Below, piece after piece: positions 33,191-64,000 of a DNA stretch of 64,000 nt. The stretch is from Patescibacteria group bacterium (GTDB taxonomy: Bacteria; Patescibacteriota; Patescibacteriia; UBA10025; JAHIVO01). Position numbers and translations under genes: made by a program. Position 1 is the stretch's first letter. Every line of letters starts with the position of its first letter. The notes under the pieces are model-generated. The model saw only the letters and a list, made by a program, of their open reading frames with translations, had not been told where the DNA came from and made no database searches. Location of the stretch: contig JBAZKE010000003.1 in assembly GCA_041650915.1 (NCBI GenBank), positions 21,226 to 85,225 on the forward strand. Reading direction: 5' to 3'.

Positions 33191-36100
33191 GTGCAAACGG
33201 GGTGGCACAAACAGCAACTGGTATTGAAATGGGCTATTCTTGGCCTATTTTTTTGTGCGATTTCAATCGTGGTATTCGGTACTGAGAGCACCTCCGCTAC
33301 TACGCTCGATCCGTCTGGTCCGCCTCCAGAAGACAATACGACGGGTTTCATAGACATTGGAAATGAATATCAGATAAAAACGGGCGCTCTGCGTTTGGGC
33401 ACGGATGACAGGTCGGCGCCGTTCAACTACCAGCTCGAGGTTGTGGGTGATGGCGCAGAAATATCAAATGTAGTCGCTGAAAACAATTTGGGTGTCGGCC
33501 AGTATGACGGCCGGACGTGTGAGAATGATGCTGATTGCGCGGGCGGCATGGCGATGTACTGCTCGTACGGCAAGTGCCGCTACGATTCGCTCTATGTTGA
33601 TTCCGAACGTGATGTAGTTTGTTTCGGCCCTTGCCTGAATGCTTCGGGGAGCAGGGTTGAAGTCAGCGGAAGCGGTATGCACGTTGAGAATGATGCAGGG
33701 TACGGCATGTATGCGACGAGTTCGTCCGATACGGCGGTTTACGGCAGCGGGACAACGTACGGGGTACAGGGCATTTCGAGCGGGTCGAATAACTACGGCA
33801 TTTGGGCAATCAATACAATCGGCACTGCGTTGGAGGGGACCAGTACGGGCGTGCCTTACCCTGCGTATAGTTCGGTCGCAGGCATCAGTACGACGGGTTG
33901 GGGCATTTACGCAACCAATACGAATGCGTCCGGGCTTTGGTCCGGCTACTTTGAGGGCAGGGTCGGATCGACGAGGAATGTGGTCGGTTCAAAGCTCGTT
34001 ACCACCAAACCAGGCGTATCACTCACGCCATTTACATCGGCCCAGGAGCTTGCCGAGTACGGCATCAGCAGTGACGGCCTGCGGTACTATGACGGGACCA
34101 ACCTCTGGCTCGCAGACGGAAATACGCTCATCAAGGTGCGCGCTTCGGATGGTTTCTTGCTGCTCCGCACAGCGCTCTCAGGAGCGCCGACGGATGTTAT
34201 TTTCGACCAGGAGGCGTTGTGGGTGACGGTCAGCGACGGAACGGTGCTCCGGCTCGACCCGGTAACCGGCACGGCGGTGTGCTCGCTCGATTTAGCGGCT
34301 GTTGCCGCACCTGTCGGACCGCTCTCAAACCCGCTCGGCATCGTATACGTCAAACAGCGTGAAATGAATATATCCCGCGGGCAGGGCACGACGTACCAGC
34401 ACTACTGGGTGACGGCAACCGGCAGTGCGGGGGCTGGCGCCATCGTTGAACTCACCTATGAAAAGCGAAGCGGCGCGTGCGCATTCGTAGCGGGCAGCGC
34501 ACAGGAAATAGTCAGTGCCAGCACCAGCATCGGCAAGATGGCTTTTGATGGCGACTACCTCTGGATCCTGGCGCAGGACAGCGTGAGCCGCGAGGGTTAC
34601 CTCGTCAGCGTACACGCTTCGGATGGAGAGGCAGCGCTGTTCCCGGATATCGTGGGAAGCGAGCCGACGGATATCGTGTTTGATAACTCATTCCTCTGGG
34701 TAACGAACAGCCTCGATGACACGCTCTCGAGGATTTCCCTGGCAGGGTCGCACGTTTGCTCTATTAAAGATGGGTACCTATGGAGATCCTGCTCAGCTAA
34801 CCTCGAGTGTGCGGCTGCAGGGCTTGGGCAGTGCTTTCAAGTGCCGATTCCGTACGGCTTGTATGATACCGCAGATGAACCGACGTACGTCGCATTCGAC
34901 GGCACGTACGTCTGGGCAGCGAGCGATACGAATCCTACGGTATCGCAGTTTCTTGCGGCTGATCCGGCTGACCGCGATGACCATACGCTCTCAGCGGATG
35001 CAAATGGCCTCCTGTTTGACGGCACGAACGTTTGGGTTTCGCACGATGCCGGAATCACGAAGCTTTTTTCCGGCACCGGATTCGGGGCAGCTGACCTGGG
35101 CGATACGCTCACGCTCCAGAATGCCGGCCCGGTCGTGCAGCAGCCCGGTTCGATATCGATCACCGATTCCGCATTCATCGGCCAGAGCTTGATTGCTGAC
35201 AGTGAGCTCACAGTTTCCGATAATGTATGGGCAGATGAGCAATCAGGCGATGTGATCCGGAGCGATGAGTGGGAGATCGCCGGACAGTGGAGCGGCGGCG
35301 GCGTCCTTGCCGTGGCGGTTACAGGCAACGGTACGGTGCTCGCCGGCGATAAATACAACGGGCACATTTACCGGTCCACGGACCGGGGCGATACGTGGGC
35401 TGATACGGGCAGCTATGGCCAATGGGTATGGGGAATCCTTGAGGCGCATGACGGCATGCTCTATGCGGCGACCGGAGATGAATCAGGGATCGGAGCGCAG
35501 GTGTATACGTCGGCCGATGATGGCCAGACATGGCAGATGAGTACAGCGGTATTTCCGACAGCGGGCAACCACGCATACGAATGTGCTGAAACTTACTTTT
35601 CCAGCGATTGGTGGGTTGCCTGCGGATCCGGGTTCGATGACTACGTTTGGCGCACCAATAACGGGGGAACTACGTGGATCCAGTCGGCCGCGTTGCCGGG
35701 TTCAGGCAGTGACAGTCCGTGGGCACTGTTCTCGGCGAGTGACGGGTACCTGTACGTTGCTTCCAAGTGGAACAGCCATGTGTACCGTACGGCTGACGGA
35801 GGCACGACCTGGGAAACGCTGGCGGACATTCCCGGCGTATCAGGCGTCTATGATCTGCTCGAGGGCAGCGATGGGGCACTCTACGCTGCCACCGGGTGCG
35901 AGTGCGCCACTATGGAGGGGCACGTGTTCAAGTCAGTTGATGGCGGCTCGACATGGCTCGACGTGATCGACGTCACCGGTGACGGGATGAATGACGTCTA
36001 CGCGATTATCGAATCTGAGCCCGGCGTGTTCTACTTTACGACGCGTGCAGAAGTTGCGGGCCCCTCTTTTACCGCGCATGTGTACCGCGCGCTCGACTAT

Positions 36101-36337
36101 GGCAGCTCATGGGCCGAACTGCCGCTGTCGATCACTCCTGATATCAATGAGCTGTCTGCCGTCACAATAGGGCCGGACGGCACCATATATCTCGGCGGTT
36201 CCCGATCATCAAGCATGGTCGTGCGGAGCAGCGGATTCGGTGCCGGTACGTACAGCTGTCCCGACGGCCACTTCATTAAGGATGTTCAGCGTAACTATGC
36301 AGGCGAAGTCATCCGGATTGAGTGCAGGGCACTCTAG
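33191..36337 (+). CDS. Large secreted protein (1048 aa). Signal peptide, Gly/Tyr-rich repeats, FDGxxxW beta-propeller repeats, six BNR/Asp-box repeats, and a C-terminal Cys motif.
   Basis: Asp-boxes STDRGDTW, SADDGQTW, TNNGGTTW, TADGGTTW, SVDGGSTW, ALDYGSSW. Repeats YDGTNLWLADG, FDGDYLWIL, FDGTYVWAA. CENDADCAGG. C-terminus CPDGHFIKDVQRNYAGEVIRIECRAL. Confidence 0.75.
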   Translation: MQTGWHKQQLVLKWAILGLFFCAISIVVFGTESTSATTLDPSGPPPEDNTTGFIDIGNEYQIKTGALRLGTDDRSAPFNYQLEVVGDGAEISNVVAENNLGVGQYDGRTCENDADCAGGMAMYCSYGKCRYDSLYVDSERDVVCFGPCLNASGSRVEVSGSGMHVENDAGYGMYATSSSDTAVYGSGTTYGVQGISSGSNNYGIWAINTIGTALEGTSTGVPYPAYSSVAGISTTGWGIYATNTNASGLWSGYFEGRVGSTRNVVGSKLVTTKPGVSLTPFTSAQELAEYGISSDGLRYYDGTNLWLADGNTLIKVRASDGFLLLRTALSGAPTDVIFDQEALWVTVSDGTVLRLDPVTGTAVCSLDLAAVAAPVGPLSNPLGIVYVKQREMNISRGQGTTYQHYWVTATGSAGAGAIVELTYEKRSGACAFVAGSAQEIVSASTSIGKMAFDGDYLWILAQDSVSREGYLVSVHASDGEAALFPDIVGSEPTDIVFDNSFLWVTNSLDDTLSRISLAGSHVCSIKDGYLWRSCSANLECAAAGLGQCFQVPIPYGLYDTADEPTYVAFDGTYVWAASDTNPTVSQFLAADPADRDDHTLSADANGLLFDGTNVWVSHDAGITKLFSGTGFGAADLGDTLTLQNAGPVVQQPGSISITDSAFIGQSLIADSELTVSDNVWADEQSGDVIRSDEWEIAGQWSGGGVLAVAVTGNGTVLAGDKYNGHIYRSTDRGDTWADTGSYGQWVWGILEAHDGMLYAATGDESGIGAQVYTSADDGQTWQMSTAVFPTAGNHAYECAETYFSSDWWVACGSGFDDYVWRTNNGGTTWIQSAALPGSGSDSPWALFSASDGYLYVASKWNSHVYRTADGGTTWETLADIPGVSGVYDLLEGSDGALYAATGCECATMEGHVFKSVDGGSTWLDVIDVTGDGMNDVYAIIESEPGVFYFTTRAEVAGPSFTAHVYRALDYGSSWAELPLSITPDINELSAVTIGPDGTIYLGGSRSSSMVVRSSGFGAGTYSCPDGHFIKDVQRNYAGEVIRIECRAL

Positions 36338-36341
36338 GCGT

Positions 36342-39300
36342 ATGAAGAAATTATTCCACAATCGAGCGGCAATCGTAGGTCTTACCGGCCTTTGCGTCGG
36401 CATCGGTGCGGTCGTTTTGGTCGTGACCGCGAGCGTGAGCATTGCCCAGGTAACATGGGAAGAACCGACATCCCAGCCGCCGGGCGGCAATAAATACGCG
36501 CCGCTCAATACCGGCCCGGGCGACCAGGCCAAGCAGGGGGGGCTGCTGCTCGACCCTTTCTATAACTATATCGGGCCAATGCCCACCATGAGCTATCCGC
36601 TCGAGGTCAGGGGGCCGCAGAATGTTAGCATATCAAGCCTCGAGGTGCCCTCGGGGCAGGATACCGGGCAACTGACGGTTGATACCGATACGCTGTACGT
36701 TGATGCAGTCAGCCACCGGGTCGGTTTCGGTACGGCCGCGCCGTCATCGCTTGCTGAGGTGAGCGGCGGTTCGCTCGATATCGGGAGCGCCGCTTCGCCC
36801 ATTGCCGCTGATCCGGCGCTCTACGTTGCCAGCCAGTCGGCAGCCGGCTTATACGCAACTTCAACAGCTAGCGGTGCGGTAGCGGCGATCTACGGCGTGA
36901 GCGGCGCGCAGCCTGGCGTATTCGGGTATAACCTCGGGACTGGCGCCGGCATCAGGGCGGACAGCGGTTCTTCGTCAGCGGTTGTCGGCACGACAGATGC
37001 GCCGCTCAGTACGGGGAGTACCGTGCAGGCCGGCGTGTACGCGGTCGGCAAAGGGCTCGGGGCATGGGCCGGTTACTTCGGCCAGCGGGTGTACGGGTCG
37101 GATGCGGTTGTCGGACGCCAGTTCATCGAATCCCAGCCCGCTGAGTCGCAGGTTCCCTATACGCAGACATGGGAAGTTCGGCTATCCTCCGATTCGAAAA
37201 AAATAAATCCCGTGCACCTGCTGTACGCAAACGGATACGTCTGGGTTGCCCAGGAAGACTCGGTCGTGTATGTCGTCAATCCCCTCAATGGGTATTTGGT
37301 AGGGGAGATCGAGCTTTCCGCGGATTTTGAGAATGACCCGGGCCATCCGGTAAACGCCAACCACGGGATCGGAAATATGGTGTACGCAGAGGGTTATATA
37401 TGGGCTCTCGGCGATACGTGGGACGAACCGATCGTATCCCGGTTTACGCCCGATCCGGATATTGCCGGAAGCTCAGTCCGGCAGTTCATCCTCGGCACGG
37501 CCTTCGACGATGACGATGTGCGCGACCTCGTGTACGATGACATCACGCCCGGCGGCCCATTCCTGTGGATAGCGAGCAGTGATGGGCCCGGTGAGGGCGA
37601 CCAGCATTCAATCGTCCGTTTGACTATCAATGAATCAAGCCCGGACTATGGTGATTTTATTGAAGTGCTGGCGCCTGACGCGAGCTGCATTACCCTGGAT
37701 GCCGCACTGTGCACCGATCGGCTCGATAACAACGGTGACGGCACGATCGACCACGGACTGTGTGTGTTCAGTGCACCGATTGATGTTGCGGAGTGCAGTG
37801 TGGCAGGCGGTACATGGACGCCCGGTACGTGCACGGATTCACGGTACGCCGATCAAACGTCTTGTGAGGGCGCACCCGCAGACAAGTACGGGTATGCGCC
37901 CCGGTGGGTGCCGGGAACGTGCAGCACCCCGGTGTGCTCACAGGTTGAGTGTGAAGCTGCCAACCACTGTTCAGGCGGCACGTGGACCGAAGGGTCTGGC
38001 TGCTCGGACGCGAATTGCTTGACGCAGGCAACGTGCGGGCTTGGCTCGGGCTGCGGCGAAACATGGACACCGCTTGAGACAGACTGCAATCCATATACTG
38101 CGACCCCCGGTGCCTCCGTGTATGATCCCGATGCGCCCGATGTGTCTCCGGATACGGACGAACGGCTCATATACCGGCAGCTCGGCGTGCCGTTCGGCAT
38201 TGCGTTTGACGGCACTGACGTATGGACGGTCGGGGGCATGCTCACCTCTGATGCATCTTCGGGAGAAGCAGTCGTAAAAATTAATGCCGCTGACCCTGAA
38301 AATGCCAGTCTTCATGACTACTACTGCATCGGGCCGGCACGTGATGCGCGGGATATCACGTACGATAGCGGCAATGACCAGCTCTGGATAGGGCAAGCGC
38401 CGTCCTGGCACAAGCCTGGCACCTTTCATGGCTTGAGCCGGTTTGATATGGCAGCGGGAAAAATTGCGGAGACATACCTGAATTCGGTTTACGGTTTTGG
38501 CGTCAATATAAATAAGGTAGAGTATGACGACATCTCAGCCGGCGGCCCCTGGGTATGGGCAGCTGCTGCGTACAATGCACCGCTCAACAAGTTCCATATC
38601 AACGATGAAGAAATAAAACACCAGTTTATTCCTCCCGGAGGCATCCCGGATTTTTCGATTGACCGTGAAACCGCAGGCGGCCCGTACGCGTGGTCGTCGC
38701 TGTACTATGCGAGTGCCGTCGGCAGAAGCCTGGTCAATGAGCCCTATACGACCGTGGTATATACGCCCAAGGGGGTCGGCAGGGAGGATATTGCGTTCGA
38801 CGGGGAATTTATCTGGACGGCAAACGGGTACGCCCAGTCAATCAGCAAGTACCGCTCAAGCGACAGCGAAAAGGTTGCAGACTACGGCGGGTTTCCGAGT
38901 GACGTGCAGCATATAATGTACGACGGTTCATACTTGTGGGCAGTCATATCGGGCGGCAGCCCGCTTGCCAAGGTCGATCCGCGGACAGGTAATATTATTG
39001 AAATATTCACGTACGCAGGCGAGCATCAGGTCGGGTGGGATTGGGCTTTTGACGGCACCAATCTCTGGCTCTCCCTCGAGCACAAGAATATGGTTCAGCG
39101 CATCGATCTCACGTCGTGCAGCGCCGGCACGTGCGGCGTCACGCAGTATGCAAATATTTTTCAGCCGTACGAGCTTGAGTTTGACGGAACCTACGTCTGG
39201 ATTACCCACACCAGCCAAGCCTCGAGTGACGTCAGCCTGAGCGATAGCCTGACGCGCATCAGGGTTTCTGACGGTGCGGTTGAAGGCCCGTTCATCGTGC

Positions 39301-40559
39301 TCGATGACGAGCACGGGGGCAATATCACCGCGCTCGAGTACGACGGAACCTACCTGTGGATCGGCACCAGTATCGCGGATTACTACGGCAACAGCGTTTT
39401 TAAACTCGATATTGAGCGTTGCGGGGAGGCGCCTGATTACGTTGATGCATGCCCGGTCGCAGGTCGGTATAAAATTTACCACGATTCCGGCGTATGCTCA
39501 GTGAGCAAGACGTACTGCACGGCATCTAACGACTGCCCGGCAACGGAGTACTGCAGCAATATCAGGCCGGCCTGTACGTACGGTGATAAGACGGATGTTG
39601 TGTATTCGAGAGTTGATCAGATGCTCTTTGACGGAATGAACATGTGGGTCACGAATATGACACCGACCGATTGCAGCTCATTACGGGAGTGCAGCACGGA
39701 TAATTCGTACGACGAGGACGGTGACGGCCTCACGGGGAATAGTGATCCGAACTGCGAGCGTACGTATGATGCGGTTTCCTATGACCACCACGAGCGGAGC
39801 ATCTGCGATGACGGGATTGATAACGATAATGACGGCACGTGCGACTGGAACGGATGCGGCGGATTGCCGGCTGACAGCGAGTGCGTCGTTGCCGGCTACC
39901 CGAATGACCTGCAGCTTGATACCGAGGGTGCGTCGCTGTTTACTGACGGCAAGGGGCTGCTCGAGTGCAGGGACGGGCTCGACAATGACGGCAATGGCTT
40001 GTGCGACTGGGACGGCGCGGCCGGCTCGCCCGGGTGCAGCGGCAAGCCTGATCCGGGATGCGATGTGCCGAATGACGCGAGCGAAGCAGCGCGGCCTAAT
40101 GACGCACATCTCACGAAGATCAACGCGGCTACCGACGAGGTTGTCGAGAGTATCCTCTATGGGGCGTACTGCAGTTCGAGCGGGCTGGCGTACGATGGCA
40201 CGGATCTTTGGATCGCGAACTACGCGTGCGAATCTGGTTATGAGTACAGCGCAGCCGCGTACTACACCCTTTATCAGTATTATTCCGGTAATGGGCGGGG
40301 AGTCACGGATATTATAAGTTCCGTTAACCTATCGGGAATTGATGCTGCTGATCCGCAGCAGGGGGATATTGCACTCGGCGGCAGCGCTACGTTTGGCGGA
40401 TCTTTGTATGTAAACGGTGATATCGTCGTGCCGGGAAATACGTGGGCGGGGACTGCCGACCATGATCAGGCATTCGGTGACGGATGCGCCGAAGGTGAAT
40501 TTGTAAAGGGGATCGATTTGACAGCCGGCAGCGAGTCGCTCCAGTGCCGGCCACTATAA
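36342..40559 (+). CDS. Large anchored or secreted paralog (1405 aa), Cys-rich, with FDGTxxW repeats and the C-terminal Cys motif.
   Basis: ATG at 36342, 4 nt after the upstream stop. Its N-terminal module, Gly/Tyr-rich repeats and FDGxxxW beta-propeller repeats match 33191..36337. C-terminus CAEGEFVKGIDLTAGSESLQCRPL. Confidence 0.75.
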   Translation: MKKLFHNRAAIVGLTGLCVGIGAVVLVVTASVSIAQVTWEEPTSQPPGGNKYAPLNTGPGDQAKQGGLLLDPFYNYIGPMPTMSYPLEVRGPQNVSISSLEVPSGQDTGQLTVDTDTLYVDAVSHRVGFGTAAPSSLAEVSGGSLDIGSAASPIAADPALYVASQSAAGLYATSTASGAVAAIYGVSGAQPGVFGYNLGTGAGIRADSGSSSAVVGTTDAPLSTGSTVQAGVYAVGKGLGAWAGYFGQRVYGSDAVVGRQFIESQPAESQVPYTQTWEVRLSSDSKKINPVHLLYANGYVWVAQEDSVVYVVNPLNGYLVGEIELSADFENDPGHPVNANHGIGNMVYAEGYIWALGDTWDEPIVSRFTPDPDIAGSSVRQFILGTAFDDDDVRDLVYDDITPGGPFLWIASSDGPGEGDQHSIVRLTINESSPDYGDFIEVLAPDASCITLDAALCTDRLDNNGDGTIDHGLCVFSAPIDVAECSVAGGTWTPGTCTDSRYADQTSCEGAPADKYGYAPRWVPGTCSTPVCSQVECEAANHCSGGTWTEGSGCSDANCLTQATCGLGSGCGETWTPLETDCNPYTATPGASVYDPDAPDVSPDTDERLIYRQLGVPFGIAFDGTDVWTVGGMLTSDASSGEAVVKINAADPENASLHDYYCIGPARDARDITYDSGNDQLWIGQAPSWHKPGTFHGLSRFDMAAGKIAETYLNSVYGFGVNINKVEYDDISAGGPWVWAAAAYNAPLNKFHINDEEIKHQFIPPGGIPDFSIDRETAGGPYAWSSLYYASAVGRSLVNEPYTTVVYTPKGVGREDIAFDGEFIWTANGYAQSISKYRSSDSEKVADYGGFPSDVQHIMYDGSYLWAVISGGSPLAKVDPRTGNIIEIFTYAGEHQVGWDWAFDGTNLWLSLEHKNMVQRIDLTSCSAGTCGVTQYANIFQPYELEFDGTYVWITHTSQASSDVSLSDSLTRIRVSDGAVEGPFIVLDDEHGGNITALEYDGTYLWIGTSIADYYGNSVFKLDIERCGEAPDYVDACPVAGRYKIYHDSGVCSVSKTYCTASNDCPATEYCSNIRPACTYGDKTDVVYSRVDQMLFDGMNMWVTNMTPTDCSSLRECSTDNSYDEDGDGLTGNSDPNCERTYDAVSYDHHERSICDDGIDNDNDGTCDWNGCGGLPADSECVVAGYPNDLQLDTEGASLFTDGKGLLECRDGLDNDGNGLCDWDGAAGSPGCSGKPDPGCDVPNDASEAARPNDAHLTKINAATDEVVESILYGAYCSSSGLAYDGTDLWIANYACESGYEYSAAAYYTLYQYYSGNGRGVTDIISSVNLSGIDAADPQQGDIALGGSATFGGSLYVNGDIVVPGNTWAGTADHDQAFGDGCAEGEFVKGIDLTAGSESLQCRPL

Positions 40560-40572
40560 TAATACGATTGCA

Positions 40573-42801
40573 GTGAAACGATTTTTACTCACAATAAAAA
40601 AAGCCCGTAAATGCGCAATCCTGTGCGTCGGCATTGCCATAGCTGTTTCGTGCGCAGCGGGTGGCCGCGTTGCTACGGCTGAGTGGATTGAACCTGACGA
40701 TGCTCCTCCTGAGGGAACTTTTTACGCGCCGATAACGCAGGGATCGGAGAACCAGGCGAAGAAGGGGTATGTGAAGCTCGATCCGCGATATACGCCAACA
40801 GATGATTACTCCCTCACGTACCGCATCAATAAGCCGCTCGAGGTAGCGGGCATCGGTGCGAAGTTTTCTACACCGGACGTATTCGCGAATTTGCTCTACG
40901 TCGATACGGACACCCTGTACGCCGATTCATTCTCAAACTGGACCGGGATTAATACCGATGTGCAGCTGCACGGGGTACAGCTCGAGGTTGCCGACGGGAC
41001 CGTGACAGCCACCCATGATAACGGTCCGGCCGTCCGCGGTTACAGCGGCACCGGCGCCGGAATCTACGGCAGCGGAGGAGCGGCTGGCATCGCCGGGGTG
41101 TACGGCCTCCGCGCTTCGAACGACGGCTGGGCAGTCTACGGCGAGAGCGAGGGTAACGTCGGGGTGCGCGGCGAGAGCGAAGCGGGCGCTGGCATCTATG
41201 CGACGACGAATTCGGATACGATGGCCGCCGTGTACGCGCGCAATGACAATACAGGCTGGGCAGCGTACTTCGACGGGAAGCTCGGCGCGGGATCCGATGT
41301 GATCACGAACCAGTTTTATCCGACGACGACGCGGCAATCGCTGCTGCCGTATACCTCTGGGCAGAAGGTTGCGGAGTATACGTACGGCGCTGACTGGAGC
41401 GATCCGGTCAACGCGATTCTCGCTTTTGACGGGACGTACGTCTGGGCGGCTACAAAAGGCAGGGATGAGAATACGAATAACCTCTTCAAGATCCGCGCTG
41501 CTGACGGCCAGACGATGGATGCATGGCGCCTTGATAGCATCTACTCGGCGGAGGCGATGGCATTTGACGGGCGTTACTTATGGCTGTACGGGCACTGGAA
41601 CAGGCTCGCCCGTTTCGATACCGTGACGAATGCGGTTCTGTACAGCGAGCTCGTCCCGATGGGGGCGCAGGATGTCATTTCGGTGCTCGTGACGTACTCA
41701 GGAGGCGAGGAGTACATCTGGGTTCCCGACTGGGGCAATAACCAGATTTTCAGGTTCAACGCGAGTACGTTCAGTACCGTAGCGCCGGAGGCATTCCTGT
41801 TTACCGATACGGCGGTGATTCCCGCGGGCAGCCTTCCTTTTTCCGAACCGGCCGGCTCGACGTACGACGGTGAGTATATCTGGATCGCCGGGTACGCAAC
41901 CGGTACCGTTGCACGCATCTGGGCGGAAAATCCGAAAGACTCAGGCCATCCCGGCATGGTCATCGATACGACGACGAGCGCCTACAACTGCGCGGTCCGG
42001 AAGGTTGTCTTTGACGGCGAGTACGTGTGGTGCCTGCAGGGGAATACCCTGTCGTACCTCGTGCGTATCTGGGCGGAAGACCCGTACGATCCCCGCCATC
42101 CGATCCGGCAATTTGGTCCCCTCATGGGAGGGGCGAAGGGCGCTGTTTTTGACGGCACCTACCTCTGGGTCGTGAACCACCTTCCAGGCACGAACGGGCT
42201 CTACCGCTTCCTTGCAGCCGATCCGGCGCAGTACGAACGTGTCGATAGCACGATCCGTAGCGAGTACCTCGTCTTTGACGGCACGTTCATCTGGGTTATC
42301 GATGAGACGACCGGCACGCTCGAAAAATTCTACAGCGGAGCGGGTACAGGCGCGGTGTACCAGAATAATATGGTGGCGCTGCAGACTTACTCGGGGCAGT
42401 GCAACGCTGATAGTTCGTACAGGTGCATGACCGATGCCGATTGCGTCCAGGTCGGAGGCACGTGCAATGTGCAGATGTACGCGCAGCAGGGTGAGGTGCA
42501 CATATCCGGCAGCGCCGAGTTCAATGACGCCCACTGCTTTGATTCCTGGCAGAACCGGCACTACTATGACCGGGCGTGCACGGCAGATGCTGAGTGCGGC
42601 GGCGCGGGGTGGTACTGCATCGGCGGTGACGTAACGGCCGGCGCAGACGTGGATGCGGACGGCAACGTGTGGGGCGGCAGCGATGATGCACGCGCAGTGC
42701 CGTCCGGCGGTTCGGCCGAGTGCAGCGACGGCCAGTTTATTAAGGGCATAACGCTTGACGGGGACAGCGAGATTACCGCGATAATCTGCAGGCAATTGTA
42801 A
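40573..42801 (+). CDS. Paralog (742 aa) of the same family.
   Basis: Signal peptide. The N-terminal module AEWIEPDDAPPEGTFYAPITQGSENQAKKGYVKLDP aligns with TWEEPTSQPPGGNKYAPLNTGPGDQAKQGGLLLDP of the previous gene. CMTDADCVQVGGTC. C-terminus CSDGQFIKGITLDGDSEITAIICRQL. Confidence 0.75.
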   Translation: MKRFLLTIKKARKCAILCVGIAIAVSCAAGGRVATAEWIEPDDAPPEGTFYAPITQGSENQAKKGYVKLDPRYTPTDDYSLTYRINKPLEVAGIGAKFSTPDVFANLLYVDTDTLYADSFSNWTGINTDVQLHGVQLEVADGTVTATHDNGPAVRGYSGTGAGIYGSGGAAGIAGVYGLRASNDGWAVYGESEGNVGVRGESEAGAGIYATTNSDTMAAVYARNDNTGWAAYFDGKLGAGSDVITNQFYPTTTRQSLLPYTSGQKVAEYTYGADWSDPVNAILAFDGTYVWAATKGRDENTNNLFKIRAADGQTMDAWRLDSIYSAEAMAFDGRYLWLYGHWNRLARFDTVTNAVLYSELVPMGAQDVISVLVTYSGGEEYIWVPDWGNNQIFRFNASTFSTVAPEAFLFTDTAVIPAGSLPFSEPAGSTYDGEYIWIAGYATGTVARIWAENPKDSGHPGMVIDTTTSAYNCAVRKVVFDGEYVWCLQGNTLSYLVRIWAEDPYDPRHPIRQFGPLMGGAKGAVFDGTYLWVVNHLPGTNGLYRFLAADPAQYERVDSTIRSEYLVFDGTFIWVIDETTGTLEKFYSGAGTGAVYQNNMVALQTYSGQCNADSSYRCMTDADCVQVGGTCNVQMYAQQGEVHISGSAEFNDAHCFDSWQNRHYYDRACTADAECGGAGWYCIGGDVTAGADVDADGNVWGGSDDARAVPSGGSAECSDGQFIKGITLDGDSEITAIICRQL

Positions 42802-42804
42802 TGT

Positions 42805-57660: not shown

Positions 57661-57675
57661 CGAAGCATAAAAAAC

Positions 57676-58878
57676 ATGGCGAAGAAACTATCATATTTGG
57701 GGGTAGACCTGAGCGGCTCAAGCATCAAGATCGTTGAGCTTGTTGACATTGGCGGCAGGTCGCAGCTCGTTACGTATGGTTTTGCAGAGGGTGTTCCGAG
57801 CATTATTAAAGACGAGAGCGTGGAAGCGCGGCATGAAGTCGCGAATCACGTTAAAGATGTATTAAAACAGTCGCGCATGTCGAGCCTCAGGGTCGTAACC
57901 GCACTGCCAAACTTCAGCGTATTCAGTTCGCTCATCAGCCTTCCTGCGATGAGCAAGAAGGAGCTCATTTCCGCTGTACGGTGGGAGGCGAAAAAGTTCG
58001 TGCCGATCCCGCTCGAAGAGATGATTCTGGACTGGGAGGTCCTGTCGGGGGATGCTGAGCAGCACGCCGCACCGGGCAGCGCGAAGGGGATGCTGGAAAA
58101 AAAGAATCACGCGGGGGATCTGCAGAAGAAAGATGGGGGCAAGGCATCGCGGGATGGTTTTCCCGGCGGTGGCGGAGGAGATCCGGAGAGCGGTTCTAGT
58201 GATGAGCAGGCGTCAGCCCGATTGAAGGAAGCGAAGGCCAGCATTAAAGTTCTCCTGACGGCAGCGCCAAAAAATTTGGTGAACCGGTACGTTGAGCTCT
58301 TCAAGGAAGCGGGCGTGCAGCTCATCGGCCTGGAGACGGAATCTTTCGCGCTCGAGCGCGCTCTCATCGGCAACGACCAGAATCCGGTTATGATTATCGA
58401 TATTGGCAATGAAGCCGCAAGCCTCACTATTTTTGCGCGCGGCGTGCCGATCCACAACCGCAGTATCGATATCGGCGGCACTACCATAACGAAGGCGGTT
58501 GCACAAGCAACCGGGCTTGCCGAGGAACACGCCGAGCAGTTCAAGCGCGATATGAACGGTTCGCTTGATGACGAGTCGGTAGAGAAGCTGCCCCAGCAGG
58601 TTAAGTACGTCGTGCACTCTGTCGTCAATGAAGCGCGCTACATTATAAACTACTACGAGCGCCAGAATAAGCAGAAGGTCTCGAAGATTATTTTAACTGG
58701 AGGCTCTTCATACTTCATGGACTTGCCTGACTATCTGCAAAAAATCTTCAATATCAAGACATACATCGGAGATCCGTGGGCGCGGGTAATCCACCCCGTT
58801 GAAATCGATTCGTTGCTCAGGCAGCTCGGTCCGCGGCTTGCCGTGTCAGTCGGCTTGGCGATGCGTGAAATTGTATAA
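57676..58878 (+). CDS. pilM: Type IV pilus assembly protein PilM (actin-like ATPase) with a Gly-rich insertion.
   Basis: LGVDLSGSSIKIVEL and IIDIGNEAASLTIF (actin-fold phosphate motifs). A ~60-aa insert rich in GGGGGDPESGSSDEQ. Confidence 0.8.
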   Translation: MAKKLSYLGVDLSGSSIKIVELVDIGGRSQLVTYGFAEGVPSIIKDESVEARHEVANHVKDVLKQSRMSSLRVVTALPNFSVFSSLISLPAMSKKELISAVRWEAKKFVPIPLEEMILDWEVLSGDAEQHAAPGSAKGMLEKKNHAGDLQKKDGGKASRDGFPGGGGGDPESGSSDEQASARLKEAKASIKVLLTAAPKNLVNRYVELFKEAGVQLIGLETESFALERALIGNDQNPVMIIDIGNEAASLTIFARGVPIHNRSIDIGGTTITKAVAQATGLAEEHAEQFKRDMNGSLDDESVEKLPQQVKYVVHSVVNEARYIINYYERQNKQKVSKIILTGGSSYFMDLPDYLQKIFNIKTYIGDPWARVIHPVEIDSLLRQLGPRLAVSVGLAMREIV

Positions 58879-58932: not shown

Positions 58933-58961
58933 TTGACTTATTTTTTTAAATATGCTACAAT
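58933..58961 (+). promoter_or_regulatory. Sigma70 promoter TTGACT-17nt-TGcTACAAT between pilM and pilN.
   Basis: TTGACT at 58933-58938, extended -10 TGCTACAAT ending at 58961, in the 213-bp AT-rich spacer. Confidence 0.5.
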
Positions 58962-59091
58962 ATACATATAACCGTTATAGGGAAAACCACTCTATACGCA
59001 GCTTCTGAGTATAAGCCTTATTTACAAAAAAGGGTTAAATTAGGCTCACCGCAAGTCTAGAAAAGGGTTACGAAAAACAAAAAAACAAACT

Positions 59092-61278
59092 ATGTCCATT
59101 AACCTCCTCCCCGGCGAGGAAAAGTTGAAAGTTAAAAAACAGCAGCAGCGGCCAGCTCCGCGGATAGAGCTAACAGGCCCGGTTAAGCCTGCAAAGAAGA
59201 CAAGGTCAGGCGTTGAGCACGCTGGCGTTTTGTCTTTTTTCAAACGTCCTTTCCTGCGCCCGAAAGTGGATGTAAGAAAGCAGGAAGCCGAGAAAGCCAT
59301 GGTAGCTCCGGCAAAAAAAATTCTGCTCGAGGAGAAAATCTTGTACCAGAAATCCAGGGTTACCTCAATGCCAAAACCAAGGGTTGAATTTCGGGCTGAG
59401 CCACAGAAGCAGCCGGAAAGTTCAAAACCGGCAGGAAAAAAGGTTTCATTCATGGCTCGCCTGTTCGGCCGGAGAGCGCCCGAAGCGGCACAACTTCCGG
59501 CAGCTTCCGCCGTGTGGCAGCAGAAGGAACAATTTCCCAAGTATAAGCCTGTCCGTACGGAGCGGGTCGCACAAGAGCCTGCTCCCAAGAAGAGAACTCC
59601 GCAGGTCGTGCATGTCGCCGCGAACGGCGGCGGGACGGCTGGTGCAGGAGAAGCAGTAAAAAGAGCGGAAGAGTCCGGACGTGAAATCCATGCTGCCGCT
59701 GGTTTTCCGAAACTCGATCAGCAGCTTAAGGCGACGGTCGAGGTCGTAACGCCCCAACAGCAGGCGAAGCAGGTGCCGGCACCAGCGCCTTCAGTGTGGA
59801 AGCGGTTCATGCACTGGCTGCGGGGAATGTTTGGCAGGAAGAAAAAATTAGACCTCCATCCCGCGCTCACCGGCAAGTCGCTGCCTGTCGTTACGCCCCC
59901 TCCGCCGCGGAGAGAAGTTTTTCATGCTGAGCGTGTCACGTACGCCCCGGCGCGGGAAATTACCCCCGAGCTTCAGCGGCCGCATGAGCGCCCCGCGCCA
60001 GACATGGAGCGGATTAAGATCGAGCCGCCGAGAGCTTTCGGCAGCGAGGTAACGCAGACTCTGGAAGTCGCCCCGCCCGCACCAGAACAAAAAAAATATT
60101 CAGCCCCGATTTCTGCTCCTCAGAAAATTTCAGCGCCCCAGAAGCCGGCCGCGGAGCCGGAGAGGGCTGCGCCACCCGTACCGGAAGTAGCGCCACTAAA
60201 GAAAGAACAGAAAAAAGGCAGCGGCTTTGGCGCGTGGTTAAGAAGGGTGCTCAGCGCCCTCGCGGGCATATTCAAGCGCAAGAAGATTGTACGCCCTGCG
60301 GCGGAAACGCATCCGGCTGAAGTGAAGGCTGACGTGAAAGAGGGCGTAAAACTAACGGCTGCGCAGGAAGCGCCCCACTATGATTTTCACGCACCGTCGT
60401 TCATCAACCCTCCGGAAGCGCAGTCCGAAGTGACAGCTGCACCAGCGGCTGAAGAAGCGGGCGATGCCATGGAACGCGTATCTGCAGCAGAAGCGATAGA
60501 TGTGCCAGCAGTACAACGAGCCGAAGTGCGCCCGGAGCGGGAGGAGATCAGCAAACAGCCTGATGCCATTGTGGAGCCGCCGCTTCCGCCACTCCCACCG
60601 CCACCTCCGTCGGAACGTGCTAGCGGAGTACGGCTTACGAAGCCCGAGGCGCCCGGAGTACAGCATACGGTCGAGTGGGAGATCAACCTGATTCCGGAAG
60701 AGTCGATGATGCATGAGCTGCCCGTAGTAAAGCTCCTGTACCTTGGCCTCTTTGTGATCGCCGCGTGCGGACTTATTTTTGGCGGCTGGCTCGGCGCAAA
60801 TTTTTACTATAATAATATCACCAAGAATGTCGGGCAAGTAAAAGATGAGATTCAGTCGCTCGCCACCTCGATCAACCAGTATGACGATTTGCAGGATAGG
60901 ATAGACGACTTGAATGCCGAGGTTCGTGAAGCAAAGACTCTTCTCGAGAAGCACGTTCACTGGTCAAGCATTTTTACGAAACTCGAAGCCCACACCGTAC
61001 CGGAGGTGTACTATACGACGATGGTTGCCGACGTGAATGGGGTGCTGCGCCTCGGTGCGGTCGGAAAAAACTATGAGGCGGCGGTCAAACAGCTGCTTGT
61101 GCTCGAGAAGGCGACGGATTTTGTAAAAACCGCTACCATATCAGGCATTCAGTTCATAGGCGAAGCTGCCGCCACCGATGGAACCGGGAATGTGCCCGTG
61201 GATGCAATGGACGATCGCGCAGTCAGCTTTACGATCGAGCTGACGGTCTTGCCGAGCATCTTTTATTTTTCACCGTAG
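59092..61278 (+). CDS. pilN: PilN-like type IV pilus assembly protein with a ~500-aa Pro/Ala/Lys-rich cytoplasmic insertion.
   Basis: N-terminus MSINLLPGEE (PilN INLLP motif). A second EWEINLIPEE lies about 20 aa before the single TM LLYLGLFVIAACGLIFGGWL. The C-terminal PilN periplasmic domain is followed by pilO. Confidence 0.65.
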   Translation: MSINLLPGEEKLKVKKQQQRPAPRIELTGPVKPAKKTRSGVEHAGVLSFFKRPFLRPKVDVRKQEAEKAMVAPAKKILLEEKILYQKSRVTSMPKPRVEFRAEPQKQPESSKPAGKKVSFMARLFGRRAPEAAQLPAASAVWQQKEQFPKYKPVRTERVAQEPAPKKRTPQVVHVAANGGGTAGAGEAVKRAEESGREIHAAAGFPKLDQQLKATVEVVTPQQQAKQVPAPAPSVWKRFMHWLRGMFGRKKKLDLHPALTGKSLPVVTPPPPRREVFHAERVTYAPAREITPELQRPHERPAPDMERIKIEPPRAFGSEVTQTLEVAPPAPEQKKYSAPISAPQKISAPQKPAAEPERAAPPVPEVAPLKKEQKKGSGFGAWLRRVLSALAGIFKRKKIVRPAAETHPAEVKADVKEGVKLTAAQEAPHYDFHAPSFINPPEAQSEVTAAPAAEEAGDAMERVSAAEAIDVPAVQRAEVRPEREEISKQPDAIVEPPLPPLPPPPPSERASGVRLTKPEAPGVQHTVEWEINLIPEESMMHELPVVKLLYLGLFVIAACGLIFGGWLGANFYYNNITKNVGQVKDEIQSLATSINQYDDLQDRIDDLNAEVREAKTLLEKHVHWSSIFTKLEAHTVPEVYYTTMVADVNGVLRLGAVGKNYEAAVKQLLVLEKATDFVKTATISGIQFIGEAAATDGTGNVPVDAMDDRAVSFTIELTVLPSIFYFSP

Positions 61279-61282
61279 TGCC

Positions 61283-61870
61283 ATGAAGTTTGCAATCGTA
61301 AAGAGGGATCTGATACGGATTTTCACGAAGTACTTCGTGCTGATTTCGGTAATCACGACGCTGCTTATCATCGGCGCTGGCTACCAGCTGTTTATCAAGG
61401 GCACGGTCGCCGACATCAGGTCCATCGGCGTGATCGATCTGAAAGAGCGCGAGCAGCAGAAGCTCAACCTGATAGATACGCTCGAGCGGCTCAAGCGGCT
61501 CGAGACCCGGTACAATGAGCTGACGTATGAGGAAATCAAGCAGCTTGAGTACCTCTTGCCTGATGAGCGTGAGATTCCCTATATCGTTATTGAGCTGAAA
61601 GATTTTATCGCTGCGAACGGGCTCGTGCTTAAGTCGATCGACGTCGGCGTGTTCAAGGCTGCTGTCGGTGAAGAGGAAGAGGAAACGAAGGCAGTGAGCT
61701 TGAAGAGCCTCAACGTAACGGTAACGATCGAAGGCCTCGACACGTACGCGCAAATCAAAGATTTTCTGGATAAGCTCGGCACGCTCATGCCGCCATTTGA
61801 ACTCAATTCATTTTCCTATGCACCGGACAGGACGAGCTACAGCCTGAACCTAACGACGTACTATAAGTAA
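61283..61870 (+). CDS. pilO: Type IV pilus assembly protein PilO.
   Basis: N-terminal TM plus a coiled coil. Position and size (195 aa) directly after pilN, with a 4-nt spacer. Confidence 0.65.
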   Translation: MKFAIVKRDLIRIFTKYFVLISVITTLLIIGAGYQLFIKGTVADIRSIGVIDLKEREQQKLNLIDTLERLKRLETRYNELTYEEIKQLEYLLPDEREIPYIVIELKDFIAANGLVLKSIDVGVFKAAVGEEEEETKAVSLKSLNVTVTIEGLDTYAQIKDFLDKLGTLMPPFELNSFSYAPDRTSYSLNLTTYYK

Positions 61871-61884
61871 GCAGCACGGCGACT

Positions 61885-62811
61885 ATGGAACCCAAGAAAG
61901 AGAAAAAGATTAAACACCTGGCGACGTACCTGGCAATCGGGCTCGTAGCGGCTGGAGTTGGCGGGTATATCATCTACGATATTTTTTACAGTACACCCGA
62001 AACGGGGGTCGTTACCCGTGATGATGCTGCGGCGAGCGGCTTGGGCAAGCCTCTCACCTTCAAGATTGACGATGAGGTGTTCAGCGACGCACGGCTGTAT
62101 GAGCTCGCGAAGGAGCCGTTTGAAGGTTTCAACGAGCAGCACCAGGGCATCGCGCTTAATACGCGCGATCCTCTCGCACCGACGCTCGAATCAGTTACGA
62201 GTACCGGTGCAGGCCGCCAGCTCATCGTCAAGTGGCAGCTGCCGGCGCATATCAATTTTTCTTCCGTCCGTCTGTACCGTTCCGAAGCGAAGGGCAAGCT
62301 CGGCATGCTCGTGTACGAAGAAGCTATCAGCGGGATGGACAGCGGCAGAGTGATGAACTATATCGATAGCGATGTTGTCAACGAGGTGCAGTACTACTAC
62401 CTTATCCGTTCAGTGGCGGTCGATGAAGCGACGGGAACTGAGTATGAATCGGAGAATGGCGATCAGTTGTTTGGTATTCCTGCTGATACGATAGCCCCTG
62501 ATTCTCCGTTGAATGTCAGCGTTGGGAGTACTGGGGACGGGGAGATTACCGTTTCGTGGATCAATCCGTACAATACCGATTTCTGGTTTGTCCGCGTATA
62601 TCGGTCAACCGTGGAGGGCGCGCTCGGCAGCGTCGTGTACCCTCGGAATGAAAATGACATCGCGGAGCAAGCGGAATCGTACGTCGATAGCGTTGATCCA
62701 AACACCGCGTACTACTATACTGTAACCAGCGTCGATACCTCGCTCAATGAATCCAGCACCGACGTGCTCGCCGCTCCGTACCGGATTAATCCTTTCATAC
62801 CCCTGCCATAA
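61885..62811 (+). CDS. Membrane-anchored protein with two fibronectin type III-like domains, sitting in the PilP/secretin position of the operon.
   Basis: TM LATYLAIGLVAAGVGGYIIY. Repeated LIVKWQLP...VRLYRSEAKGKLGMLVY and ITVSWINP...VRVYRSTVEGALGSVVY. Confidence 0.55.
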   Translation: MEPKKEKKIKHLATYLAIGLVAAGVGGYIIYDIFYSTPETGVVTRDDAAASGLGKPLTFKIDDEVFSDARLYELAKEPFEGFNEQHQGIALNTRDPLAPTLESVTSTGAGRQLIVKWQLPAHINFSSVRLYRSEAKGKLGMLVYEEAISGMDSGRVMNYIDSDVVNEVQYYYLIRSVAVDEATGTEYESENGDQLFGIPADTIAPDSPLNVSVGSTGDGEITVSWINPYNTDFWFVRVYRSTVEGALGSVVYPRNENDIAEQAESYVDSVDPNTAYYYTVTSVDTSLNESSTDVLAAPYRINPFIPLP

Positions 62812-62821
62812 CGTTACGAAT

Positions 62822-64000
62822 ATGGATTTCAATGGACCACAGACAAGACAGTCGCTGCTCGATATTTTTATCGAGGGCGGCCTCCTGCCGATAGAACGGG
62901 TAGAGGAGCTGAAAAAGCAGGCGAAAGATGATGATGAAGTAGCAGAAATTGCGATCCAGCGCGGATTCATATCCGAGGAAGACGTCGCGAAAGCCCGGAG
63001 CAGGGTGCTCGGCGTGCCGTATATCGATTTGTTTGGCAAGTCGATACCGCATGCGGTTTTAAGTTTAATACCGCGGGAGCTGGCAGAAAACTACCACTTC
63101 GTTGCGTTCGATAAAGTTCAAAATGAAATCAGCCTCGCCATGGTAAACCCGGGCGATTTCAAGGCCATTGAGGCGGTAGAATTCATCGCACGGGAAAAGC
63201 AGCTGAAGATAAAGTTCTATATTATATCTACGAGCGGTTTCCGGTATGCGGCAAAACAGTACGCAACGCTCGGCGCGGAGGTGGAGGAAGCGCTGGCGGG
63301 TACGGACCAGCGGGATCGCGGATCACTCGATGAGCTGCTCGACAAAGACAAGGGCAAGGGGCAAACCGTCAAGAGCGCCCCGGTATCAAAGATGGTATCG
63401 GTCATCCTCAAGCACGCCGTCGAGGGCAATGCATCTGATATCCACATCGAGCCGGTCGAGAATGAGACCCGGGTTCGGTACCGCGTTGACGGCGTCCTCC
63501 ATACCTCACTCGTGCTGCCGCGGTATGTGCACTCGGCGATCGTCGCGAGGATTAAGGTGCTCTCCAACCTGAAGCTCGATGAAACGCGCGTTCCCCAGGA
63601 CGGCCGTTTCCGCACCGAGTGGGAGGGGAGAATCATTGACTACCGCGTTTCAACGCTCCCGCTATTCTCGAATGAGAAAGTCGTTATGCGTATCCTTGAC
63701 CGCGCTGCTGTCGTGCTCGATCTGGAAAAGCTGGGATTTGAGGGGAGGAGCCTCGAAGTTATGCAGCAATCAGTCAAGAAGTCGGTCGGCATGATCCTGC
63801 TGACTGGCCCGACCGGTTCTGGAAAATCAACCACGCTCTCTGCTCTGCTCACCATCCTCAACGACGATTCAATCAATATCATTACGCTTGAGGACCCGGT
63901 TGAGTACTACATCAACGGCGTAAACCAGTCCCAAATCAATCCCGATGTCGGGCTTACTTTTGCGGCCGGGCTCCGGTCGATTTTGCGCCAGGACCCCGAC
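62822..64000 (+). CDS. pilB: Type IV pilus assembly ATPase PilB/GspE, 3'-truncated by the window edge.
   Basis: Manual translation from the ATG at 62822 gives a T2SSE N-terminal domain, then the Walker A LLTGPTGSGKSTT and the VEYYINGVNQSQIN motif. The ORF has no stop before 64000, which is why it is absent from the ORF track. Confidence 0.8.
   Translation, partial: MDFNGPQTRQSLLDIFIEGGLLPIERVEELKKQAKDDDEVAEIAIQRGFISEEDVAKARSRVLGVPYIDLFGKSIPHAVLSLIPRELAENYHFVAFDKVQNEISLAMVNPGDFKAIEAVEFIAREKQLKIKFYIISTSGFRYAAKQYATLGAEVEEALAGTDQRDRGSLDELLDKDKGKGQTVKSAPVSKMVSVILKHAVEGNASDIHIEPVENETRVRYRVDGVLHTSLVLPRYVHSAIVARIKVLSNLKLDETRVPQDGRFRTEWEGRIIDYRVSTLPLFSNEKVVMRILDRAAVVLDLEKLGFEGRSLEVMQQSVKKSVGMILLTGPTGSGKSTTLSALLTILNDDSINIITLEDPVEYYINGVNQSQINPDVGLTFAAGLRSILRQDPD

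Follow-up and report, generated by a model that had tools for sequence, protein, structure and literature searches.

Host recognition and attachment are a central open question in the CPR/Patescibacteria, and to our knowledge type IV pili (T4P) have been experimentally implicated in CPR host attachment only for Saccharibacteria. PilY1/PilC, the type IVa tip adhesins of Pseudomonas, Neisseria and Myxococcus, are large proteins that bear a Sec signal, are not pilins and map to pilus gene clusters. Their C-terminal domain is conserved, their N-terminal region is variable and adhesive, and they include a beta-propeller; a genome may hold several paralogues. ComZ, the tip pilin of the Thermus thermophilus competence pilus (PDB 6qvi), carries a beta-solenoid like that of ice-binding proteins (IBP); it binds DNA, and its gene accompanies pilA1-3 (PMC6561018). 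Tapirins of Caldicellulosiruptor (PDB 6n2b, 6n2c, 4wa0) are secreted, cellulose-binding beta-helix proteins encoded beside the T4P locus, downstream of the pilus genes (bioRxiv 10.1101/359786). Within the CPR, the precedent for a propeller-bearing T4P adhesin candidate is PilX2 of Nanosynbacter lyticus TM7x. This T4P-associated protein combines a non-canonical signal with a beta-propeller at its C-terminus and has been proposed to be a host-binding tip adhesin (PMC11623550). Thin CPR filaments can also be non-T4P, as in the case of Pam pili (bioRxiv 10.64898/2026.03.03.709456). Here we describe a T4P operon headed by four large genes, A to D, which reveals a very widespread protein family tied to pilM in much of the Parcubacteria-type CPR.

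Layout of the pilus operon

The window, a stretch of 64,000 nucleotides, comes from a metagenome-assembled genome named Patescibacteria group bacterium and related to Kerfeldbacteria. Genes A, B, C and D are + strand ORFs that lie at the head of a T4P operon, with spacers of 4 nt (A-B), 13 nt (B-C), 3 nt (C-D) and 15 nt (D-pilM), and are followed in order by pilM, pilN, pilO, an FN3 protein and pilB (Table 1). Beyond pilB the contig holds a response regulator, pilC, three pilin-like genes and PilD. The T4P assembly set (pilM, pilN, pilO, pilB, pilC, prepilin peptidase and pilins) is thus complete in one cluster, where the pilin genes begin about 7 kb downstream of D, past pilC, and pilT is absent from the operon downstream of A-D. 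The preliminary description had reported four consecutive genes of these lengths and spacings leading into pilM to pilB in a CPR-like genome, with two promoter-like sites; the ORF coordinates, the Pfam matches (marginal for PilO and weak for fn3) and the name of the source organism confirmed it.

In the pilN-like protein, the N-terminal MSINLLP motif is separated by some 530 aa of low-complexity linker from a second motif, INLIP, which is followed by a TM segment and a C-terminal domain like that of PilN. The protein gave no Pfam match; its place between pilM and pilO and its C-terminal 200 aa are kept in all relatives. The double FN3-like protein holds the same position in relatives and gives way to one of about 120 aa in more distant genomes. 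The first promoter candidate lies inside a 152-nt divergent intergenic region, the other side of which is a conserved 174-aa minus-strand gene. Both promoter-like sites were present as described, and the total of such sites in the region did not exceed shuffle expectation. No terminator-like site was found in the spacers between genes, the only matches falling within genes B and C. The short, terminator-free spacers indicate a single transcription unit from 33191 into pilM, and the region is best explained as belonging to one long T4P operon, of which it forms the 5' half, in a Patescibacterium related to Kerfeldbacteria.

Table 1. Features of the locus, in positions of the window
Feature	Position	Strand	Size	Remarks
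Sigma-70-like promoter candidate	33032..33061	+		TTGACA-18-TAGAAT, TG extended -10, 11/12; consensus match only
Gene A	33191..36337	+	1048 aa	Pfam Sortilin-Vps10, BNR_2; paralogue of B and C
Gene B	36342..40559	+	1405 aa from ATG	Paralogue of A and C
Gene C	40573..42801	+	742 aa	Paralogue of A and B
Gene D	42805..57660	+	4951 aa	Giant acidic protein, predicted secreted or anchored
D-family conserved core	54094..54927	+	D aa 3764-4041	First part of beta-solenoid domain
Invariant D-family C-terminal tail	57457..57657	+	D aa 4885-4951	Ends the ORF directly upstream of pilM in 24/24 loci
pilM	57676..58878	+		Pfam PilM_2 4.5e-42
Second promoter-like site, pilM-pilN gap	58933..58961	+		TTGACT-17-TACAAT, TG, 10/12; consensus match only
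pilN-like	59092..61278	+	728 aa	Putative, by position and motif
pilO	61283..61870	+		Pfam PilO 2.7e-4, 21.5 bits (cut-off 22), marginal; conserved in relatives
TM-anchored double FN3-like protein	61885..62811	+	308 aa	Weak fn3; between pilO and pilB
pilB, 5' part	62822..64000	+	583 aa in full contig	Pfam T2SSE 2.1e-71, MshEN 7e-13

The paralogous proteins A, B and C

All four proteins begin with a hydrophobic N-terminal segment, in agreement with the signal peptide or anchor ascribed to them earlier. They had also been taken as four paralogues sharing an N-terminal module (N-module), propeller repeats and a C-terminal motif. This held for A, B and C, which have all three elements in common (BLASTP E 1e-13 to 1e-25, 24-30% identity) with a Cys-bounded C-terminus ending in C-R-x-L, and which, judged from their sequences, are true paralogues. 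It did not hold for D, in which all three elements are absent and BLASTP found only a 51-aa Cys-rich match. When a C-family profile was aligned with D by hhalign, one Cys-knot segment was obtained at 20% probability, and four-way paralogy was rejected.

Protein A consists of a signal peptide, a tail-fibre-like Gly/Tyr-rich N-module (about aa 37-283), an FDGxxxW beta-propeller, a BNR/Sortilin-type propeller (aa 681-1000) and a C-terminal C..G.F.K…C-R-x-L; its aa 725-830 scored 37.3 bits with Pfam Sortilin-Vps10, above the cut-off of 33. In B, the signal peptide and N-module are followed by two FDGxxxW propeller regions and the shared C-terminal motif, with Cys-rich and acidic double-disulfide repeats between the propeller regions (NCBIfam acid_disulf_rpt match weak), and aa 107-209 matched phrog_5906 (1.8e-8). 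Protein C has a signal peptide, an N-module (aa 37-261), a 7-8-bladed propeller (aa 262-590) and a Cys-knot C-module with a CRQL end. Its AF2 model gave a pLDDT of 80-90 for the propeller and below 30 for the N-module, and Foldseek returned generic BamB/WD40 propellers, with PilY1 missing among the top 50. Scans of A-D (D in eight segments) with Pfam, NCBIfam and PHROGs yielded only generic propeller, FN3 and DNRLRE matches.

Motifs of the A-C N-module were also found in tail-fibre-like proteins with Peptidase_S74/G2 domains and in tail-fibre PHROGs. A profile of this module recovered only such motif-sharing proteins, and no further family members, in a word-indexed homologue search, and nothing usable from PDB sequences. 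The order A-B-C-giant is kept in L001, L003, L004 and L113 with one-to-one orthology, orthologues of A opening the array and those of B coming second. In about 25 of 35 metagenome loci (roughly 70%), 1-3 fibre-like genes precede the D-like gene. We also considered a diversity-generating retroelement; no template/variable repeat pair was present in the window or in L113. L113 carries an Avd-like (23S_rRNA_IVP) gene.

The D family and its linkage to pilM

Protein D has an N-terminal hydrophobic helix, an FN3-like domain (aa 498-612), three 'WRIEKR' propeller regions (about aa 640-1070, 3300-3760 and 4240-4690), a BNR_4-like 'GNPHVAW' region (aa 2076-3300) and a DNRLRE-like domain (aa 4068-4211; NCBIfam DNRLRE match weak). 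Pfam Pur_ac_phosph_N/fn3 matches were obtained as well, and aa 2060-3300, scanned as a segment, scored 41.3 bits with Pfam BNR_4 against a cut-off of 27.3. Homologues in relatives have 2400 to >4400 aa. D is a hypertrophied member of a separate family, distinct from A-C, which comprises about 6,100 clusters at 50% identity and has a usual size of 520-820 aa. The family gave no Pfam, NCBIfam or PDB sequence match; no Pfam family covered the core in the 37 members scanned, and D-core profiles had zero matches among all PDB sequences (tapirins included) at E up to 10. We found no description of it in the literature, where one catalogue paper goes no further than showing transmembrane families, left unnamed, in the neighbourhood of pilB/pilC/pilM in Patescibacteria (PMC10849945).

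Members of the family share the core, with the motifs GW[IV]EF and G.G[LV]I[VI][IV]DG[DN]LEI, and the C-terminal tail, with the pattern PL.V.GL.VA..F.F.R.Y…E.I.YDGR..AN.PPGL.DF..ALP.Y.RV.P-COOH; in D, some 850 inserted aa lie between the two. The conserved core was modelled as an IBP/ComZ/tapirin-like beta-solenoid. Its predicted resemblance to the ComZ and tapirin solenoids is the only structural pointer to pili; the Foldseek match with ComZ was statistically weak (E 0.05-0.6). Beta-solenoids are frequent in many unrelated adhesins and enzymes. The preliminary description had proposed to search the N-terminal module for likeness to minor-pilin or PilY1-like domains; A-D showed neither a prepilin signal nor a PilY1 domain. 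The prepilin motif G[FMYLIVW][ST]..E was missing from the first 60 aa of A-D and of all 178 D-family sequences. The family is thus unable to polymerise as a pilin, and D as a pilin was rejected. Minimal forms resemble cleaved secreted proteins with A-x-A-like sites and no membrane anchor.

A search through PilM retrieved 24 species-representative genomes, and in all of them (24/24) the gene immediately upstream of pilM belongs to the D family, the upstream ORFs sharing a 60-aa tail and a 265-aa core in proteins of 697 to >3330 aa. The reverse search used the D core alone, and pilM was present on the same strand within 1.5 kb in 69 of the 71 informative metagenome loci, i.e. those with at least 700 nt downstream. 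Three further locus look-ups, the most divergent homologue among them, concurred on this adjacency. The D family is very strongly linked to the pilus operon. These genes do occur beside pilMNOB in related genomes, the comparison proposed earlier as a refuting test, and the conserved synteny strongly supports the earlier claim that large surface proteins are functionally coupled to a T4P operon in a CPR genome. Since a D-family member precedes pilM in nearly every related locus, it is likely to be part of a cell-attachment pilus. We also considered whether a giant D goes with loss of the operon pilT; no clean correlation was seen, as pilT is missing from L032 too, where D is minimal.

The same linkage bears on an explanation in which A-D are independent tapirin-like surface adhesins or coat proteins, co-transcribed or co-regulated with the pilus and physically separate from it. 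We regard this as unlikely, because 97% adjacency of D core and pilM, at D-core identities down to 25-30%, is tighter than mere co-regulation predicts, and because a C-terminal tail that is invariant points to a conserved partner. We also think it quite unlikely that the D family belongs to the structural parts of the pilus machine and had adhesive domains grafted onto it in this lineage, for example as a collar or conduit spanning the envelope, cell wall or S-layer and replacing PilP/PilQ/TsaP in monoderm-like cells. In pilMNOPQ operons the position beside pilM is held by the machine components PilP and PilQ, and the near-obligate place of D beside pilM-pilN-pilO rather than pilins, about one conserved D core in each operon, a C-terminal residue pattern whose strict conservation suggests a fixed protein-protein contact, and the lack of a secretin-like gene in the operons examined all fit such a component. 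However, machine parts seldom range from 520 to 4951 aa, the minimal forms look secreted and anchor-free, and the nearest folds are adhesin/receptor solenoids (ComZ, tapirin, IBP), not ring-forming proteins.

Proposed role and comparison with known systems

We favour, with some reserve, the reading that A-D form the extracellular binding module of the T4P system, serving host or surface adhesion and acting in the manner of PilY1, ComZ or tapirins. D is a vastly expanded member of a putatively Sec-exported, non-pilin family encoded immediately 5' of pilM in this CPR lineage. Its constant solenoid and tail may dock the protein to the pilus, at a minor-pilin priming/tip complex or at the pilus base, and contact with the host or with another surface would fall to the variable domains at its N-terminus and in its insertions (propellers, FN3, Cys knots and lectin-like DNRLRE). 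A, B and C, as anciently diverged paralogues in fixed order with tail-fibre-like N-modules, propeller heads and a conserved C-terminal Cys loop, would be co-expressed fibre adhesins in an accessory role; they may form a hetero-oligomer and may sit on D or on the cell surface. A location at the pilus tip or sheath and a role in episymbiont attachment are what we infer. By analogy with PilY1, extreme size variation around a constant core would be an adhesin pattern, unlike that of machine parts. Known tip adhesins, however, are usually encoded beside minor pilins, and the position of D next to pilM, far from the pilins, counts against the adhesin reading.

T4P and type II secretion systems (T2SS) are homologous and A-D have Sec-type N-termini, as T2SS substrates do, so that A-D could be pictured as cargo of a T2SS-like pseudopilus. 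We consider this highly improbable: with neither outer membrane nor secretin expected in Patescibacteria, Sec export alone would release A-D, nothing in the data specifically supports it, and we know of no precedent for pilus-like machinery exporting such cargo. An extension of the binding-module reading, which we offer tentatively and hold to be possible rather than probable, is that the pre-pilM family is an unrecognised core T4P component in a large part of Patescibacteria, a functional counterpart of PilY1/ComZ that primes or caps the pilus and carries host-recognition domains; here, grown to about 5,000 aa and acting with an A-B-C heterotrimer that forms a tail-fibre-like propeller adhesin, it would make an episymbiont host-docking organelle. 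In the lineage studied, the family has expanded to a giant protein with multiple propellers, and three fibre-like paralogues flank it. The D family and A-C are concrete candidates for host-specificity determinants of pili, and the conserved tail offers a simple sequence marker for metagenome detection.

D appears to belong to none of the PilY1, ComZ and tapirin families. Like PilY1/PilC it is a large non-pilin with a Sec signal encoded in a pilus cluster, and A-D also match the other traits of these adhesins given above. However, the PilY1/Neisseria_PilC domain (PF05567) had no Pfam match in A-D, with the threshold relaxed to E 1 for the D segments; the conserved domain is predicted to be a beta-solenoid in D and is a propeller in PilY1; and the D gene precedes pilM, outside a minor-pilin cluster of the fimU-pilVWX type, and encodes a protein 3-5 times larger. 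With ComZ the D core shares the modelled IBP-like solenoid, whereas the GspK-like pilin domain and N-terminal pilin helix of ComZ are absent from the D family, and profile searches of PDB sequences detected no similarity at the sequence level. Tapirins, too, are secreted proteins from beside a T4P locus, yet they share no sequence similarity with the D family and lack the YDGR…PPGL tail. The D-core model also resembles ice-binding proteins of the DUF3494 fold (PDB 5uyt, 3wp9, 7bwx and 6bg8), for which the 37 members gave no Pfam match, and the context and tail motif of D are unrelated to ice binding. PilX2, compared by description only, is a minor pilin of a Saccharibacteria pilin locus, unlike A-D (PMC11623550). 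With tail-fibre-like Peptidase_S74/Peptidase_G2 proteins, the A-C N-module shares 'VDTDTLYVD..(N)RVGIGT..P' and Gly-rich G.GV.G.S repeats ending in AG(Y/F)F.G; the S74/G2 chaperone domain was absent from A-C by Pfam, and in these chromosomal pilus-operon genes propellers and a Cys-loop C-terminus take its place.

The array of predicted surface proteins and the pilus operon behind it

Genes A to D, which encode four large predicted surface proteins, are separated by spacers of 4 nt (A/B), 13 nt (B/C) and 3 nt (C/D), and pilM (Pfam PilM_2, 4.5e-42) starts 15 nt past the end of D. The genes that follow pilM are a 728-aa gene in the pilN position, pilO (a marginal Pfam match), a gene for a TM-anchored protein with a weak fn3 signal and, at the window end, the 5' part of pilB (Pfam T2SSE, 2e-71, and MshEN). 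Past the window, the 273-kb source contig carries the rest of pilB and then genes for a response regulator, PilC, a pilin, a GT2 glycosyltransferase, a Wzy_C/TPR protein, another pilin, a protein of 140 aa, a prepilin peptidase and one more pilin-like protein; the downstream pilins are 148, 167 and 235 aa long. Both promoter-like sites listed in the preliminary description are present, at 33032-33061 (11/12, extended -10) and 58933-58961; they are consensus matches only, the total count of such sites being not above that in shuffled sequences. No terminator-like site was found in any intergenic spacer, and the sole matches in 32400-43400 fall inside genes B and C. The guess that the genome belongs to the CPR was right, since a MAG of a Patescibacteria group bacterium encodes a 'hypothetical protein' identical to protein C.

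Coordinates of the four surface-protein genes in the window
Gene	Coordinates	Strand	Product
A	33191-36337	+	ORF, 1048 aa
B	36342-40559	+	ORF, 1405 aa
C	40573-42801	+	ORF, 742 aa
D	42805-57660	+	ORF, 4951 aa

The gene in the pilN position (59092-61278) starts with MSINLLP, a PilN-type N-terminal motif; after it come about 530 aa of low complexity, rich in Pro, Lys and Ala, and then a second motif, INLIP, directly before a TM segment. In relatives, the first residues of the protein and its C-terminal 200 aa are conserved, and the linker is of variable length. The GT2 glycosyltransferase and the Wzy_C/O-antigen-ligase-like TPR protein lie between two pilin genes (15195-18262 of L005, the source contig beyond the window end), which suggests pilin glycosylation. 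pilT is absent between the response regulator and pilC in the source operon (L005 12719-14362) and, across loci L006-L032, in its close relatives, and is present in the operon of more distant relatives (L018, L019, L021, L022, L026, L028, L030 and L031); its presence showed no clean correlation with the size of D.

Two other regions of the window were noted. Beside tRNA-Ser(TGA) (25268-25356), the minus strand carries at least 3 tandem units of 135 nt, 99% identical, at 24838-25285. The opening 17 nt of each unit repeat the 3' end of the tRNA-Ser gene (GAATCCCTCCGCCTCCG), and a hairpin inside the units also occurs 3' of both neighbouring tRNA genes; the units look like a reiterated att site or a tRNA-3'-end duplication. 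A second surface or secretion cluster (33-20643) has three large ORFs, of 1520 aa (with a dockerin domain), 1079 aa and 649 aa, and a VirB4/TraG-like ATPase (13927-15807), a T4SS-pilin-domain protein (16420-17934) and then radA. This cluster resembles the Patescibacteria T4SS (PMC12102498).

Linkage of the D family to pilM

One genome per species was scanned with the PilM of the window, which yielded 24 loci, with PilM 45-60% identical, from MAGs of Patescibacteria, Kerfeldbacteria and Parcubacteria, 6 of which their submitters labelled 'uncultured Gammaproteobacteria bacterium'. At each of the 24 loci the ORF directly before pilM, of 697 to >3330 aa, ends in the tail PL.V.GL.VA..FNF.R.Y….E.I.YDGR..AN.PPGL.DF..ALP.Y.RV.P, and a ~265-aa core that corresponds to D aa 3764-4041 was likewise present in 24/24. 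The strongest result on pilus linkage came from the reverse test, in which metagenome contigs were searched by the D core alone (pattern [YN]DGR[LV]x[AL]N[PT]P, then tblastn confirmation). Among the 80 loci obtained, 71 had 700 nt or more of sequence beyond the match, and 69 of these 71 have a pilM homologue in the same orientation no more than 1.5 kb downstream, usually 20-150 nt past the stop of the D-like gene.

Three homologues, including the most divergent (29% identity), showed the order D-like, pilM, pilN, pilO, small protein, pilB, response regulator, (pilT), pilC, pilins. In close relatives the minus strand carries ClpC, M48 peptidase, LemA and a ~170-aa gene, followed on the plus strand by A-like, B-like, C-like and giant genes, with one-to-one orthology of A, B and C and tight spacers. 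In the wider metagenome sample the usual length of the D-like protein is 520-820 aa (median ~608), and ~25/35 loci have, ahead of its gene, 1-3 genes whose products show the W..P mature N-terminus and/or VGIGT motifs. The window is therefore an outsized version of an operon layout that is widespread.

Divergent from the array, the minus strand at 26544-33038 encodes ClpC, a ~500-aa ORF without Pfam matches, M48 peptidase, LemA and a 174-aa TM protein without family assignment; ClpC, M48 and LemA are syntenic with the array even in the distant genomes L030, L031 and L113. Between the C-like and giant genes, a Kerfeldbacteria-like relative has an extra 486-aa gene (L001 12373-13833) and another relative a 137-aa 23S_rRNA_IVP (Avd-like) gene (L113 16292-16705), near which a search for a template/variable repeat pair of the kind seen in diversity-generating retroelements found none.

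Sequence of D and of the A-C family

Searching with the core profile turned up numerous minimal homologues, 620-750 aa long. When all 1.84 billion representatives were scanned with HMMER, 6112 clusters matched at E up to 1e-3 and 494 at 1e-30, and in most of the best 150 of the 6112 matches the profile ends a few residues from the protein C-terminus. In D, the core and the tail are ~850 aa apart, the insertion comprising a propeller between a DNRLRE-like domain and a further DNRLRE-like region. Minimal homologues have GWAWS…GWLSLNC at their mature N-terminus, but in D this motif sits at residue 2078, which suggests that D residues 36-2075 are an added N-terminal extension. The core and the family matched no Pfam model and no PDB sequence.

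The four proteins had been described as paralogues, which held for A, B and C but not for D, where BLASTP and hhalign detected only a short Cys-knot resemblance; thus, the array consists of three paralogues and one different giant. A, B and C have ~300 N-terminal residues in common (24-30% identity, BLASTP E 1e-13 to 1e-25), as well as FDGxxxW repeats and the C-terminus; D shows none of these. As defined from two alignments with homologues (A1 and A2), the family has an invariant mature N-terminus, A-(E/A)-W-x-E-P…PP…Q.K.G…DP, after a hydrophobic signal, then a 'VDTDTLYVD…WVGIGT' element and Gly/Tyr-rich ~10-residue repeats ending GWAGYF.G, one or more propellers, a Cys-knot region and a C-terminal C..G.F.KG…C-(R/K)-x-L-COOH with an invariant final Leu. 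The propeller of C (aa 262-590) was modelled by AF2 at pLDDT 80-90 and matched generic 7-8-bladed propellers in Foldseek; further features are a BNR/Sortilin propeller in A (37.3 bits, above cut-off) and acidic double-disulfide repeats in B.

Both elements of the A-C N-module recur in small tail-fibre-like proteins (profile search of 5.8 billion sequences, E 1e-19 to 1e-4), some of which carry Peptidase_S74 or Peptidase_G2 intramolecular-chaperone domains. B aa 107-209 matches phrog_5906, which is also matched by a motif-sharing protein that in addition matches tail-fibre PHROGs. Because of these matches we call the N-module tail-fibre-like; it may form an oligomeric fibre. As a monomer it was predicted by AF2 at pLDDT <30 (12 sequences).

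Fold of the D core and comparison with known adhesins

The AF2 model of P0038, a minimal D-family homologue (37 sequences), had a mean pLDDT of 74; its C-terminal part from ~residue 480 was mostly >80, with residues 630-700 at ~64-84. In Foldseek against the whole PDB, three ComZ chains ranked first, with weak statistics (E 0.05-0.6). The D family could alternatively be a component of the pilus machine, as its place beside pilMNO and its one-per-operon conservation would fit, but its tenfold size variation and the adhesin-like fold of the core speak against this. The best-supported reading of the array is a pilus-coupled adhesion module, in which the constant solenoid and tail of D would make a conserved contact with the pilus system, and the highly variable rest of D, together with the propeller heads of A-C, would bind surfaces or hosts. 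Such a module would work like PilY1, ComZ or tapirin.

No description of the D family or the A-C family was found in the searchable literature; unnamed transmembrane families adjoining pilB, pilC and pilM in Patescibacteria are merely depicted in a catalogue paper (PMC10849945). Membership of the D family in PilY1, ComZ and tapirins was tested in turn, and it belongs to none of them. ComZ, a pilin into which an IBP-like solenoid is inserted, has been argued to cap the competence pilus (PMC6561018). The prepilin motif is absent from 178 D-family sequences, the family having Sec-type signals with A-x-A-like sites instead. Tapirins are cellulose adhesins whose genes adjoin a T4P locus (bioRxiv 10.1101/359786), and D might also be a tapirin-like adhesin independent of the pilus; to both ComZ and tapirins, the modelled likeness of the D family is at the level of fold only. 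Within the CPR, Saccharibacteria are reported to need T4P for host attachment (PMC9894109, PMC10633639), and non-T4P filaments are also made (bioRxiv 10.64898/2026.03.03.709456). As a pilus-coupled adhesion module, the array would add to the T4P-associated non-pilin adhesins; in the CPR, PilX2 of TM7x is a precedent for propeller-bearing T4P adhesin candidates (PMC11623550).
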